A DNA stretch of 64,000 nucleotides from Ignavibacteria bacterium (GTDB taxonomy: Bacteria > Bacteroidota > Ignavibacteria > Kapaibacteriales > UBA2268): assembly GCA_026416955.1 (NCBI GenBank), contig JAOAEE010000008.1:18195-82194 (forward strand). Reading direction: 5' to 3'. This document shows positions 125 to 30,059 of this stretch, one piece after another; positions within the stretch are counted from its first letter, which is position 1; each line of letters begins with the position of its first letter. The notes under the pieces were generated by a model. The model did no database searches. It had not been told where the DNA came from and saw only the letters and a list, made by a program, of their open reading frames with translations. The position numbers and the translations under genes are program-made.

Positions 125-2251
125 TTAAGCACTTAATGTTTTTGGTTGGCCAAAACTAATGTTATTTGCACCAAGATTTAGCGTTATTTGGAATAATGCT
201 TTCGATATAAGGATTGCAGTGAATAAAGTAGTAATAATACCAATCATTAGTGTCATTGCAAAACCTTGGATTGGTCCCGTTCCTAAGAAATACAAAATTA
301 GACCAGTGATAAATGTTGTGATGTTAGAATCGAGAATAGCAGATAGAGCTTTGGAGTAGCCTTCGTCGATTGCAGAACGTATTGACCTACCTTTGTCCAG
401 TTCTTCTCGGACTCGTTCGTAAATAAGAACGTTTGCATCGACAGCCATACCAAGCGTAAGAATTATTCCAGCAATTCCGGGAAGGGTAAGAGTTCCTTGG
501 AAAGCAGCCATAATCCCTACTATTAGTAAAACGTTTATTAATACTGCAACGTTTGCGTAAACTCCAGCAAGAGAGTAGTAAATCATCATAAACAAAAGAA
601 CAAGAATTGCTGCAATAATTAAAGATTGAATACCTTTCTGTATAGAGTCTTCTCCAAGAGAAGGACCAACAATCCTTTCTTCGATAATTTGTACTGGGGC
701 TTTTAAAGCACCAGCTTTAAGAACAATTTTTAGCAATTTTGCTTCTTCGGGACTACTCATTCCAGTTATTTGTGAATTACCTCCTACTATTTTTTGTTGT
801 ACTACTGGGGCAGAGTAAACTACGTTGTCCAAAACAATAGCAATTCGTTTCTTTATGTTTGCTCCGGTAATTCTTGCCCATTTTTCGGCACCATCAGTAT
901 TCATCGACATAGTTACAATTGGTTGATTGGTAGTAGGGTCGTATGTAGCAATAGCGTCTGTAATTACTTCGCCTGTCAATTCTGGCTCACGCTTAAGAGC
1001 GTAAAAACTGTATATTTTATATTCTTTACCCGTGTTATCTTTGATAATATTTGGTTTAGCACTCCTGAGAATTTCGATATCGTAGGGAAGTAGCGCGCGT
1101 ACTTCTTTGCGATTTATTATTACTTCAAATTTGTTCCAAACATCTTCGAAAATTTCGAAATCAAATTCGCCTTTGGGAACTTGCGAAGCATTATAGAAAC
1201 GGACATCTCTTTGATATTGCGTTCTTTCTGCATTTGGTGGTAAGTAATTAGTAATAAACAAGGTTGTGAATGGGTGGTCTTCTAAATATTTTTTTGATTT
1301 TTCTTCTTGGGATAAACCAGCATAAGGATCAGTTGTATCTTGTACTTCTGCTTTCTTTGCAGTATCTACCTTACTATTAACGATATTTGTGTCTTTATTT
1401 TTTATTTCTTTTTTAGTTGTATCCAAAGGAGCAATCTCTTGACTTTTCTTTGTTGTGTCGGGTGGAATATTAGGCATTTCTTTGGTAACTAATTTTTCTT
1501 TCTTTAAAAACTCATCAATTTTATAAAAAGCAGCAACCAAGTTTTCGTCGTTTCGAACAAGTTTAAATTCTAGCCTTGCAGTAGTTTGTATCAGTTGCCT
1601 CATTTCCTTTTCATTGGTTACACCGGGGAGTTCCAATAGTATTCTTCTTTGACCAATTTTTTGTATCGTTGGTTCAGAAATTCCATATTTATCGACTCGT
1701 TGGCGTATGACTTGTAAAGCCTGGTCGATAGATTCCTGTGCATTTTCCTTTAACTTTTCGATAATTTTCTCTTCTGATTCTGCTGCATCGCCTCCAAAGT
1801 CATAATAGTCCGAAAGAAACTTTCTTTTGGGCCTTGCAATTTGGTCGAAATTTTTCTTAAAAATATCTACAACATCTTCGTTGGAATTTTTAGCATCTTG
1901 TTTAGTCTTCTCTAATACTTCAAGAAAAATATCGTCAATGGCATCTCTTTGTGCTGCCTCTTCAAGCATTTTTAGAACATCGACTTCAAGAGTAACATAC
2001 ATTCCACCTCGTAAATCAAGACCAAGTTTTATACGATTTGCTCGTGCATTAATGAGTTCCTCGCCATATGCTTTTTCGAACTTTTCAATAATTGCAAGAG
2101 AATCTTGGGGTGTTGCCGCTTTTTTGGCATTTTCAAAGTATTGTTGCCTTATTTTCTCCAATTTGCTTGCGTTATAAGTTGGATAAAGCAAAAACAAAGA
2201 GATGATAAGTGGGGCAATGACAAGAATAATTTTCCCAATAGACTTCTTCAA
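125..2251 (-). CDS. secD: Protein translocase subunit SecD
   Basis: IKLGLDLRGG, IRQRVDKYGISEPTIQ, IAIVLD, LKAGALKAP, GMAVDANVLIYERVREE motifs. Start moved from 2314 to TTG 2251 because GGAGG lies 6 nt upstream and a TAATTTTG element lies at 2284-2291. Confidence 0.95.
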   Translation of the reverse strand: MKKSIGKIILVIAPLIISLFLLYPTYNASKLEKIRQQYFENAKKAATPQDSLAIIEKFEKAYGEELINARANRIKLGLDLRGGMYVTLEVDVLKMLEEAAQRDAIDDIFLEVLEKTKQDAKNSNEDVVDIFKKNFDQIARPKRKFLSDYYDFGGDAAESEEKIIEKLKENAQESIDQALQVIRQRVDKYGISEPTIQKIGQRRILLELPGVTNEKEMRQLIQTTARLEFKLVRNDENLVAAFYKIDEFLKKEKLVTKEMPNIPPDTTKKSQEIAPLDTTKKEIKNKDTNIVNSKVDTAKKAEVQDTTDPYAGLSQEEKSKKYLEDHPFTTLFITNYLPPNAERTQYQRDVRFYNASQVPKGEFDFEIFEDVWNKFEVIINRKEVRALLPYDIEILRSAKPNIIKDNTGKEYKIYSFYALKREPELTGEVITDAIATYDPTTNQPIVTMSMNTDGAEKWARITGANIKKRIAIVLDNVVYSAPVVQQKIVGGNSQITGMSSPEEAKLLKIVLKAGALKAPVQIIEERIVGPSLGEDSIQKGIQSLIIAAILVLLFMMIYYSLAGVYANVAVLINVLLIVGIMAAFQGTLTLPGIAGIILTLGMAVDANVLIYERVREELDKGRSIRSAIDEGYSKALSAILDSNITTFITGLILYFLGTGPIQGFAMTLMIGIITTLFTAILISKALFQITLNLGANNISFGQPKTLSA

Positions 2252-2283
2252 TTGCAACCTCCAAAATAAATATGAAAAAAATA

Positions 2284-2291
2284 CAAAATTA
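2284..2291 (-). promoter_or_regulatory. Putative -7 promoter element (TAATTTTG) for secD
   Basis: Exact match to the Bacteroidota-type TAnnTTTG consensus, 32 nt upstream of the revised start. Confidence 0.55.
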
Positions 2292-2571
2292 CAATAATAT
2301 AGGTTTTTTACCAATTAATTTTTCTTTTAATTGTTCTTAACTTAATTCTTCTCTTTCAATTCTATTTTAAAAAATTACTTCATTTCTTAAATTTCTATCC
2401 TTGGTTTCTAATTTTACCAAAAATGTAGTGAGTTTTGCGTGTGAAAAATACCTCACTTAGATAAAATCTATAGTGAGTGGAAAAAGAAGACCTTAAAAGA
2501 AAAATCTTATAATTTATGAGATTATTTATAGTTTGTGTAGGGTAGTAAGAATAAATTTAATTATTAGGTAA

Positions 2572-3225
2572 TATGCAACTGGGTCCGATACACAGGACAA
2601 AGCACATTGGGCAGGGTTATTAGATGGAGAAACACAGATATTAGATAATGGACAAAATCTTTCAGTTTTGTATTTTTGTGGTGGATGGAATTGCAGGCAT
2701 CATTGGAGTCCGGTCGAAGGCGAAATGCAAAAGGATGGGAAATTGTTTGTGCACAAGACTTGGAGCGACAATTTCAAGCGAATGCAAGAAGAAAGGAAAA
2801 AAAACGAGGTAAAGAAATTGGAGAAGGAGATGGAGACAGCGAGTCGGCTTGCCGAGTGTCCGAATGTATCGAAGGTTGAGTTGAACCTTGAACGAGCCGG
2901 GCGTGTCGTTCGGCAGTTGAAGGAAGAAACTGGGGCTGGGGATATCGATATTTTTGTCGACGGAATGCCAGTGCAGTTGAAGTCGACACAGAGTAAAAGC
3001 GGTGAAATTTTTAAAAGTATTATTGAAAGGTCGCACAAACAAGCAAATGTGTTTGTTATTGAATACGAAGATTTTGATTATGTTGCCGATAAAATTAATA
3101 TGTTAGAAGATTTATTAAGGAAAAAAGGAAAAAAAAGAGTATTTTTGTTTAATAAAACAACTGGTAATTTTTTTGAGGTGAAGTATAAGCTAAATTCTTT
3201 TTTGAAGTTAAGTTTGCACAAATAA
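2572..3225 (+). pseudogene. Truncated phage MuF/minor-head-protein C-terminus fused to a CdiA-CT-like PD-(D/E)XK nuclease domain
   Basis: Frame is open from 2572 (after TAA 2569-2571) and encodes LDNGQNLSVLYFCGGWNCRHHWSPV (MuF-type GGxNCRH motif), then KEMETASRLAE...DIDIFVDGMPVQLKSTQS...IIERSHKQANVFVIE. The N-terminal part of a head protein is absent. Elevated GC (hand count 144/300 at 2701-3000). Confidence 0.6.
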
Positions 3226-3424
3226 TAAGGGGTTTGTATTTTTCTGGTTTGATAATAATAAATTCTTTATTAGTTAATAAACATAACTTAAATAAATTCC
3301 TATAAATAAGTAATTTGATTTATTTTTTTTAAATAAATAATCTAAGATATTGACAATTAATAATTAAATAGATTTGATTAAGAATTTTGAAGGAAAAATA
3401 AAATAAAAATTTTTTTGTGTTAAT

Positions 3425-4153
3425 TTATATAAACAGTATCTTCTTTATTTTTTTGTAAAGTTCCCACGTTGAGTTTACATCGCGAAGGCAGTAAAGTGCA
3501 ATTTCAATTAAATTACCTTCTTTGTAATATTGGCTTACGTTTGAACCATCTATACCAAATGCTTTGGGGGATTCAATTCCGAAGGCACGGGTGTAAAAAT
3601 CAAGGTTAAATCTTTTAGTGGGTGAAAAATAATTTGTTGGCTGGTAGAATGTCAATTCGTCAAGCAAATCGGTGTGGAATTGGTAATTATACTTAGTTCC
3701 TTCCATCAAGTTCCTTGTTGGAACTACGCCGTGAATTGCGGAACGCAACATAATGAAGGGACAATCGAAATTTCTACCATTGAATGAAATTAGGTGAATG
3801 TCTGGATATTTGGCTAATATGCGCCAAAAAACTTCTAAGCATTTAGTTTCCGTAACCGTATATATTTCAAAATTATCGATTATCTTAGCTTCTTCAACTT
3901 CGACAGGTGAATTGTCGACCACATAAGCAACGGCCTTCTTAGTTAATTCATTGTCATTTTCCAATTCAACGAAAATTAATCCAATGCAAATGATTTGTGC
4001 TGTAAAAGGTGAAAGACCAAGTTCAACCTTTCTTTTTTCTTTTTCTTCTTCAGTTATAAGATTTCTAAGAAGGTATTCTTTTTGAGATTCCGAGAAAGTA
4101 TCCCAATCAAGAGGTGTTGTTTCAATGTCGAAAACAAGATATTCTTCTTTCAT
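3425..4153 (-). CDS. Predicted 3'-5' exonuclease related to the PolB exonuclease domain (DEDD family)
   Basis: VFDIET (ExoI), SFNGRNFDCPFI (ExoII) and YCLRDV (ExoIII) motifs. Confidence 0.85.
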   Translation of the reverse strand: MKEEYLVFDIETTPLDWDTFSESQKEYLLRNLITEEEKEKRKVELGLSPFTAQIICIGLIFVELENDNELTKKAVAYVVDNSPVEVEEAKIIDNFEIYTVTETKCLEVFWRILAKYPDIHLISFNGRNFDCPFIMLRSAIHGVVPTRNLMEGTKYNYQFHTDLLDELTFYQPTNYFSPTKRFNLDFYTRAFGIESPKAFGIDGSNVSQYYKEGNLIEIALYCLRDVNSTWELYKKIKKILFI

Positions 4154-24325: not shown

Positions 24326-24447
24326 ACTATACCAAGATTTAAATTTTTTTGCAACAAACAATATCTGGTAACTTTTAGATTAATATACCCAATAAAATTT
24401 TCACAAATTCTTAGATAGCGTTTTTACATTTAGGGGATAGCATCTTG

Positions 24448-24521
24448 TGGTCCCGGAGGGACTCGAACCCCCGACACGCAGTTTAGGAAACTGCTGTTCT
24501 ATCCGCCTGAACTACGGGACC
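24448..24521 (-). tRNA. tRNA-Arg (anticodon CCT); CCA not encoded
   Basis: Reverse complement GGTCCCGTAGTTCAGGCGGATAGAACAGCAGTTTCCTAAACTGCGTGTCGGGGGTTCGAGTCCCTCCGGGACCA: 7-bp acceptor stem, TTCCTAA anticodon loop, GTTCGA T-loop. Confidence 0.96.
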
Positions 24522-29660: not shown

Positions 29661-29699
29661 GTAAAACTATAAAGAAAGAGGAAATAAAAAAAATTTTAG

Positions 29700-30059
29700 T
29701 GGAGATGGCGGGAATCGAACCCGCGTCCGAAGTGTTTCCGCTGCAGTGCCTACATACTTAGTCGTTCTTTAAATTTCGCTTTTACGCGAACCGAACGACA
29801 GGTTTCGTAAAAGCTATCGGTTGTGTTTGTCGCAAAAGGACCAACCGAAAAATCCTTTTGCCAGCCCATCTACTTGCGACACCCTTTTGGAAACCGATGG
29901 GCAAATTTCCAAAAGGATGGGCTACCGTTATGTATTAGGCAGCCAAAGCATAATTGCTTTCGGCATTTTTTTTCTGCCGTTTGGATTTACGTGCTGCAAC
30001 GGCAAAGCACGGTATGCCACTGTCAGCTTCCAACACCCCGTCGAATCCAATTCATCCCC
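29700..30059 (-). ncRNA. ssrA: tmRNA
   Basis: 5' GGGGATGAATTGGATTCGACGGGG and 3' GACGCGGGTTCGATTCCCGCCATCTCCA with a G3.U acceptor pair. Internal tag frame GCC GAA AGC AAT TAT GCT TTG GCT GCC TAA (AESNYALAA*) at 29964-29935. Confidence 0.97.

Follow-up and report, generated by a model that had tools for sequence, protein, structure and literature searches.

The DNA analysed here is a 64,000-nucleotide (nt) stretch, the window, of contig JAOAEE010000008.1 from an Ignavibacteria bacterium, and its element of interest is a piece of a phage MuF toxin gene, hereafter the relic, which lies between the host gene secD and a gene for a PolB-like 3'-5' exonuclease. In frame 1 the DNA is open from 2572, directly after a TAA at 2569-2571, to a stop at 3223-3225, which gives 217 codons; the encoded sequence begins YATGSDTQDKAHWAGLLDGETQILDNGQNLSVLYFCGGWNCRHHWSPVEGEM and contains LDNGQNLSVLYFCGGWNCRHHWSPV, followed by the segments ETASRLAE, GDIDIFVDG, VQLKS and KQANVFVIE. 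An open reading frame (ORF) of 185 amino acids (aa) with a TTG start at 2668 is likewise present, and frame 2 at 2574-2621 reads MQLGPIHRTKHIGQGY and then a stop. All the sequence features that an initial annotation of this DNA had listed were recovered where it had placed them. Detectable family homology is confined to ~2626-3189 of the open frame, and the locus is composed as follows.

2572..2625, plus strand: leader of the open frame (codons 1-18, YATGSDTQDKAHWAGLLD), without detectable family homology, overlapping the frame-2 peptide MQLGPIHRTKHIGQGY and its stop; predicted local distance difference test (pLDDT) below 50 in the AlphaFold2 (AF2) model.
2626..2712, plus strand: remnant of the C-terminal motif of a minor head protein of the MuF superfamily (Phage_Mu_F / Phage_min_cap2), GETQILDNGQNLSVLYFCGGWNCRHHWSP, aa 19-47, assigned by homology.
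2713..3189, plus strand: complete CdiA_C-like PD-(D/E)XK nuclease toxin domain, aa 48-206, predicted from PF18451, the AF2 model and Foldseek.
3190..3225, plus strand: read-through tail of 11 codons (LNSFLKLSLHK) and the stop, past the end of the closest relative P0002 (which terminates in …EVKYE), as judged from DNA and protein alignments with L001/P0002.
3226..3424, no strand: AT-rich spacer of 199 nt with 16-20% GC, at the position of the relatives' immunity gene; no ORF longer than 23 aa.
2321..2571, no strand: AT-rich DNA, from the secD promoter to the open frame, replacing the 3' end of the putative ftsY of relatives (alignment with the secD-upstream regions of L093-L097).
2252..2320, minus strand: secD leader and promoter region, kept in relatives, with GGAGGT upstream of the TTG at 2249-2251, the TAATTTTG motif and AATTGGT; host-side edge of the junction.
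125..2251, minus strand: secD, the left flanking host gene (Pfam SecD families), with its start at TTG 2249-2251 (MKKSIGK…).
3425..4153, minus strand: PolB-like 3'-5' exonuclease gene, the right flanking host gene (PF10108, E 4.9e-20), convergent with the relic.

A hidden Markov model (HMM) of the family, built without the window, matched the open frame with 179 bits (E 1.5e-56) over nt ~2635-3186, its envelope beginning at ~2626. CdiA_C (PF18451) was the sole significant Pfam family for the ORF (residues 126-190, E 3.5e-5), its 24.3 bits not reaching the gathering cutoff of 26.6 bits, and Phage_min_cap2 (PF06152) appeared faintly (E 0.1), with ~28 residues of that domain left; the precomputed Pfam list of the protein collection assigns PF18451 to the window's 131-aa product as well. 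Two relatives were found among 5.8 billion protein clusters. One of them, P0002 (362 aa), aligns to 86% of the query with 57% identity and has ~200 further residues ahead of the same C-terminal domain. In the other, P0003 (212 aa), the similarity is limited to the NGQ…NCRHHW stretch, just past which the protein ends; Portal_Mu and Terminase_3 are encoded on the same contig. When 1.8 billion representatives were searched exhaustively by HMMER for the C-terminal domain, only 13 hits were returned. Nine of these carry the domain, eight being proteins of 266-373 aa with a MuF-like N-terminus and the ninth (P0007, 163 aa) beginning at the motif, and the remainder comprises P0002, the window's own product, and P0004 and P0009, which share a short repeated motif only. 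The latter two (5750 and 1409 aa) match the toxin profile via 5-12 repeats of a TGxGDIDxFVDG-like segment (profile positions ~70-95) that is probably an unrelated repeat motif and not a nuclease domain. Across 14 family members, CdiA_C was detected in 13 at E <= 0.1 (best 1.3e-14), PF06152 in eight (best 1.8e-7) and Phage_Mu_F (PF04233) in four (best 3.3e-8); intact full-length relatives measure 334-373 aa. The MuF remnant of the window, which ends in …NGQNLSVLYFCGGWNCRHHW and retains the ~28 last residues of the minor-head domain, aligns to the invariant GG-NCRH-W motif of these full-length proteins, with G37, G38, C41, R42, H43 and W45 being family-invariant, and is 73% identical to P0003 and 57% to P0002. 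The origin of the ORF from a fusion of a MuF head protein with a toxin, which the initial annotation had proposed, is thereby borne out. No match for the ORF was obtained in PHROGs, NCBIfam or PADLOC, nor for P0002 in a tblastn search of 50,697 GenBank phage records.

The stretch that joins the two parts recurs in many viral proteins. A scan of IMG/VR yielded 78 viral contigs that encode the [YW]NCRH[RH]W motif, and among the 73 motif ORFs that are complete at the 3' end, 17 stop no more than 15 aa past the motif, 28 stop at 16-60 aa, and 27 continue for more than 120 aa beyond it (the longest for 959 aa), their sequences being unrelated. Extensions as varied as these indicate that the motif marks the junction of a polymorphic C-terminus, which is the pattern of a polymorphic toxin family. 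The contigs of intact relatives encode a CI-type repressor, Mu Gam, ParB_N, a portal protein or Portal_Mu, and a terminase; the term 'Mu-like' is provisional, because it draws on the portal, Gam and repressor matches only. In these phages the MuF-like gene is the last of a plus-strand operon and faces the portal gene convergently, a conserved gene of 175-192 aa on the portal strand lying between them (L002:406-4292, L012:7725-10701, L013, L014, L015, L037), a layout that differs from the canonical portal-MuF order. At L092:1-861, P0019 (174 aa as called) is the 3' part of a full-length MuF-toxin gene with a frameshift near codon ~95 of the contig. It had been considered as a second stand-alone form of the toxin and was set aside as such, since the gene is full-length apart from the frameshift, lies in a phage-like contig and has an 88-aa immunity ORF after it.

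What kind of enzyme might the C-terminal domain be? The AF2 model of the window protein, computed from a 14-sequence alignment, has a mean pLDDT of 78.8 and a predicted template modelling score of 0.72; residues 50-205 are confident, and residues 1-47, the MuF remnant included, are disordered. The top hit of a Foldseek search of the PDB was 4g6v_A, from the CdiA-CT/CdiI complex of B. pseudomallei 1026b (probability 0.99, target TM 0.59, 136 columns), and the next hits were PD-(D/E)XK folds, namely XisH, AF2093, YaeQ and Cas4-family proteins. In BFVD the top matches were phage proteins named 'CDI toxin-like', 'MuF-like fusion protein', 'minor capsid protein' (n=5) and 'tRNA nuclease CdiA C-terminal domain-containing protein'. 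The model thus predicts a restriction-endonuclease-like alpha/beta fold for the toxin domain, and the PF18451 match, the PDB hit and the BFVD matches agree with the earlier assignment of a CdiA_C-like PD-(D/E)XK nuclease. The conserved residues of the domain are E86 (2827-2829), E103, D124, D126 (2947-2949), Q135-x-K137 (2974-2982) and Q157 (3040-3042), of which E86, D126, K137 and Q157 are invariant in the family and E103 and D124 conserved. The 1026b toxin is Mg-dependent, cleaves tRNA-Ala and has an active site composed of E187, D214, D223 and K242 (review, PMC9086364). By analogy, the nuclease of the intact gene is probably Mg-dependent and a tRNase like this CdiA-CT. By sequence, neither the window protein nor the family profile nor P0019 found a relevant PDB entry, and the fold search alone did, so that the tRNase assignment is one made from fold and family.

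The (D/E) position of the (D/E)xK motif is occupied by Q135 in the window. The initial annotation had suggested that such a substitution might explain how the domain is tolerated without immunity. However, 10 of 13 relatives have Q-x-K themselves; the exceptions are P0014, with N-x-K, and the two that are closest to the Pfam model, P0017 and P0019, with E-x-K. An immunity ORF follows every member with readable downstream DNA. Because the variant is common in the subfamily and its carriers keep their immunity genes, Q-x-K is native, evidently still calls for immunity and does not account for tolerance.

The immunity partner is a regular feature of the family. In all nine loci examined (L010-L015, L031, L037, L052), an ORF of 64-94 aa overlaps the toxin gene or starts within a few nt of it, and we presume it to be the immunity gene. 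These ORFs can be aligned with each other, share a …Y..G…(I/L)T.EE…L… pattern and belong to no Pfam family; a member also follows the L092 toxin, the putative family accompanies Q-x-K and E-x-K variants alike, and two members tested were without a PHROG. An HMM of this family run over the six-frame translation of the 64-kb window gave a best E of 0.11, at an unrelated site, and tblastn found no immunity gene in the window. The spacer at 3226-3424 holds no ORF of at least 24 aa and returned low-complexity blastn matches only. The absence of an immunity gene, as originally reported, therefore holds for the window. On the minus strand the relic contains two antisense ORFs, one of 126 aa (2662-3042) and one of 112 aa (2700-3038). 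They were considered as hidden partner genes and dropped, their presence being attributed to locally higher GC; L001 also shows antisense ORFs at the corresponding position, whose similarity to the window is taken as a by-product of sense-strand conservation.

A prophage is missing as well. When 2,168 ORF segments from 85 phage-type loci (L001-L003, L012-L092) were compared with the window, none matched outside 2500-3300; no phage gene was found elsewhere in the 64 kb, in agreement with the earlier claim, and the neighbours are secD and the exonuclease gene. No cdiB, cdiI or large CdiA gene is adjacent to the relic, the domain being fused to the MuF remnant instead. The window contains a tmRNA gene (29699-30059, tag AESNYALAA) and a gene for tRNA-Arg(CCT) (24447-24521), both on the minus strand. 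Genes for tmRNA and tRNAs are common phage attachment sites, and no phage-related ORF was detected near these two.

Was the N-terminal part of the gene removed, or is it hidden by a frameshift? The initial annotation had read GPIHRTK in frame 2 as a displaced MuF motif and hence as a sign of a frameshift. A frameshift was tried and rejected: with filters off, the family HMM run against all three frames of 2301-3225 matched frame 1 only, from ~2635, so that this peptide is without statistical support in any frame. The upstream motif of the toxin family, RYxGP…RxFC, also lies farther from NGQ than the window permits. In tblastn, P0002 aligns to the window from 2629 on, and no match to its residues 1-174 was obtained anywhere in the 64 kb; at the DNA level, L001 and the window were estimated by eye to agree in ~40% of 48 columns aligned upstream of 2640, which is not clearly above what AT-rich DNA gives by chance. 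The 305 nt between the secD promoter and the start of homology (2321-2625) are AT-rich and similar to no fetched locus, and Rfam had no match over the DNA around the relic, 2321..2571 included. Because family homology starts at ~2626-2635 and nothing upstream matches in any frame, the gene is 5'-truncated and not frameshifted.

The truncated gene sits where two blocks of host genes meet. The exonuclease gene is 66-76% identical to those of metagenome-assembled genomes of Candidatus Kapaibacterium, Kapabacteria and Ignavibacteria, in which the order bamD-exonuclease is conserved. Its 3' side is occupied in these relatives by genes for an S8 peptidase and glyA (L004, L007, L009), by porin and uvrA genes (L006, L008) or by another gene (L005), and in none of the six by secD. 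For its part, secD is 82-88% identical to its counterparts in metagenome relatives (81-87% by tblastn for L093-L097), and in five of the six closest relatives examined (L093-L097) it is preceded by a co-oriented gene of ~330 aa, which we read by eye as ftsY; the sixth, L131 (75%), has another neighbour. None of these exonuclease-downstream and secD-upstream neighbours is present in the 64-kb window. Since the flanking blocks have other neighbours in relatives, the relic lies at a lineage-specific join of two host blocks, bamD-exonuclease and secD. The ORF list had started secD at 2314, and the relatives place its real start at TTG 2249-2251; secF, which follows secD in relatives, would fall off the left end of the window.

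The same synteny might be read in another way, namely that the metagenome contig is chimeric and that the phage fragment does not really lie between secD and the exonuclease gene. The two blocks are adjacent in no relative examined, both junctions consist of AT-rich low-complexity DNA, and the contig is a single observation, all of which speaks for such a reading. The two host genes are nonetheless matched in composition (GC 0.35 and 0.34, and GC at third codon positions, GC3, 0.26 and 0.31, for secD and the exonuclease gene, respectively), and no repeat is common to the junctions that could favour a mis-join; a search for repeats and target-site duplications around the relic found AT-rich chance repeats only, and no terminator. 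Moreover, one true junction would suffice to place the relic in the host chromosome, and truncated chromosomal copies have been seen independently in two other loci, L010 and L011. We consider an assembly artefact highly improbable.

At L010:7900-8766, a copy truncated at its N-terminus (P0015, called at 188 aa) is accompanied by an immunity ORF of 65 aa, the pair being bordered by the gene of an OPT transporter on one side and by unrelated genes on the other. Its homology reaches ~25 codons further upstream than the called start before it ends, and perfect hairpin repeats (e.g. GGACTCCACCTCACAGGTGGAGTCC) flank the copy, similar repeats being found in L011. L011:10001-12899, on a contig of 1.38 Mb, is a tandem set that has an aspartyl/asparaginyl-tRNA synthetase gene on one side and housekeeping genes on the other; gene calling gave no other phage genes there. 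The set consists of an N-truncated toxin (266 aa) with a 64-aa immunity ORF, a full-length toxin (342 aa), where the gene caller had a minus-strand ORF instead, with another of 64 aa, and a ~35-aa tail with one of 65 aa. The array has a GC content of 55% as against ~33% in its flanks and was likened to the orphan arrays of contact-dependent inhibition (CDI) and Rhs systems. Pieces of MuF-CdiA_C toxin genes thus persist in chromosomes outside recognisable prophages, and among them the window copy, lacking an immunity gene, is the odd one out, as the L010 and L011 copies keep theirs.

Orphan CdiA-CT/CdiI and Rhs-CT/RhsI modules were reportedly described by Poole et al. in 2011, and the relic resembles them in being a detached 3' toxin fragment with a short conserved piece before the variable domain. 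Conceivably, it could serve as an orphan cassette of the cdiA/rhs type, that is, as a short homology arm (NGQ…NCRHHW) plus toxin from which an incoming related phage might swap its C-terminal toxin. The fragment indeed begins ~25 codons before the motif where phage C-termini diverge, which matches the make-up of CDI/Rhs orphans, and L011 provides a genuine case of such modules in tandem, complete, N-truncated or reduced to the tail, all of them accompanied by an immunity gene. Yet known orphan modules carry an immunity gene and lie beside a full-length toxin locus, whereas the window has neither, nor an array, which makes L011 the closer analogue; an arm of ~85 nt would also be short for homologous recombination, and a benefit to the host is not evident. 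We therefore regard an orphan cassette as very unlikely.

We favour, as the probable explanation, that ~2626-3189 is a 5'-truncated, probably silent and recent relic of a phage MuF polymorphic-toxin gene at a rearrangement junction. In the intact gene, a MuF-like minor-head domain of ~200 aa, ending in …NGQxLxVxYFCGGYNCRHRW, would carry the protein into the virion, and is fused to a CdiA_C-type PD-(D/E)XK nuclease of ~160 aa that a small immunity protein, encoded directly downstream, would neutralise. The most likely course of events, in our view, is that a temperate phage with a Mu-type portal and Gam, like those that carry the intact relatives, once inserted at this site and that a deletion or rearrangement then took all but the last ~28 MuF codons and the whole toxin domain. 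Missing now are the first ~170 codons of the gene, its immunity partner and all remaining phage DNA. With its native start and operon context gone, the relic would not be expressed, or would give only a crippled product, and either case would explain why the host tolerates an otherwise intact toxin domain in the absence of immunity. The composition of the relic fits a recent event: GC along the gene is 0.41/0.47/0.43/0.22 in the window vs 0.41/0.48/0.50/0.25 in the phage homologue, and GC3 is 0.40 vs 0.24-0.31 in host genes, so that the relic is compositionally foreign and not visibly ameliorated. The description given by the initial annotation, of a captured cassette that is decaying, comes near to this reading. 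The retained part shows no excess of decay.

That absence of decay heads a series of observations that weigh against a silent relic. The 190 retained codons are free of stops and frameshifts and keep all family-invariant residues, and the deviation at 11 of 57 conserved columns (19%) lies within the range of intact members (6-33%); a gene still under selection would look equally like this. The ratio of nonsynonymous to synonymous change (dN/dS) against the only close homologue is 0.40/1.9, and, dS being saturated, it is uninformative on the period since truncation. Furthermore, an in-frame ATG at 2725 with a weak Shine-Dalgarno (SD) sequence would yield 166 aa with the whole domain, and ATG 2830, the gene caller's choice, would yield 131 aa and is the sole start with a good SD sequence (GGAGAAGGAG just upstream), in a genome that uses such sequences, as GGAGGT precedes secD. 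A TAnnTTTG promoter-like motif lies at 2671, such motifs occurring 1.2 per kb. Given these starts, the SD-like sequence and the promoter-like motif, expression is possible. It is also possible that an unlinked immunity gene or a prophage lies elsewhere, the window being 64 kb of a contig of 198 kb, and no transposase was recognised in the phage contigs of the relatives.

Might the host then have kept the toxin domain as a working gene? Translated from ATG 2725 or 2830, it could act as an abortive-infection or anti-phage nuclease, or form an addiction module with an antidote elsewhere. The intact ORF, its invariant residues and the lack of excess substitutions would all be accounted for, as would the plausible starts with their SD-like sequence and promoter-like motif, and the genomes of L010 and L011 do keep N-truncated copies in non-phage chromosomal settings, although with the immunity gene that the window copy lacks. 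The start with the best support, however, encodes M87, one residue past the invariant E86 and within the first long helix (77-94) of the AF2 model; the corresponding product would consequently be without a conserved acidic residue, and half of the first core helix would be removed. A host function is moreover poorly reconciled with the distribution of the element, which has no other member in its 90% cluster and no close relative among the 5.8 billion clusters, and which is found in none of the six relatives at the exonuclease locus and none of the 43 at the secD locus. PADLOC had no match for the 217-aa or 166-aa products or for P0002, and the unameliorated GC suits a recent arrival rather than a long-kept host gene. 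Hence, we find a working host gene unlikely. The related proposal of a domesticated stand-alone nuclease or anti-phage effector, made in the initial annotation, finds no positive support either: no second copy exists in the 5.8 billion clusters, relatives lack it, and PADLOC does not match it.

How does a truncated MuF toxin gene of this kind compare with known systems? MuF toxins have been defined as a MuF domain with a C-terminal toxin and a small downstream immunity ORF, the superfamily comprising PF04233, PF06152, MuF3 and MuF4; the small downstream ORF was present for 89% of them, a Bp1026b-type tRNase domain (cd13442) was mentioned in the discussion of their toxicity, and they were reported to be exclusively phage- or prophage-borne (Jamet et al., 2017, PMC5576092). 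The ancestral gene would conform to this definition, as in the family a MuF domain at the N-terminus is combined with a variable toxin at the C-terminus, of a type that other polymorphic-toxin families also use, and a small immunity ORF follows downstream, on phage contigs; in the window the CdiA_C domain directly follows NCRHHW. Unlike a MuF toxin, the copy in the window is missing ~170 aa of its MuF domain and has neither an immunity gene nor, over 64 kb, a prophage, and its phage group departs from the class in having the toxin gene convergent with the portal gene, not directly downstream on the same strand, and in a MuF domain too divergent for most members to reach Pfam thresholds. With CdiA-CT(II) of Bp1026b (4G6V), its best structural match, the domain shares a similar order of secondary structure and acidic residues plus a lysine on core strands; it differs in having 16% sequence identity and Q-x-K in place of the classical (D/E)-x-K, and delivery in the subfamily would rely on a phage head protein instead of a CdiB/CdiA type V system. 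In related viral contigs the MuF-like domain, with its extensions to 959 aa, recalls the MuF-bearing 'polyvalent proteins' of phages (Iyer et al., 2017, PMC5512222), whereas the window has one small domain, truncated.

Taken alone, the relic is of little weight, being a prophage leftover of the already described MuF polymorphic toxin class. Its family adds a divergent MuF/CdiA_C subfamily with a native Q-x-K and a previously unnamed immunity family of 64-94 aa, in phages with Mu-type portal genes, and together with L010 and L011 it places pieces of toxin genes outside recognisable prophages, where the original description of MuF toxins found none. For the organism, the relic marks a lineage-specific chromosome rearrangement to ~1 kb in a Kapaibacteria-like genome. 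There is also a slim chance that a captured, immunity-less and catalytically intact CdiA_C nuclease is kept here as a silent or weakly expressed effector, e.g. an abortive-infection nuclease that is switched on by infection; if true, this would exemplify a route from phage-delivered polymorphic toxins to host defence genes.

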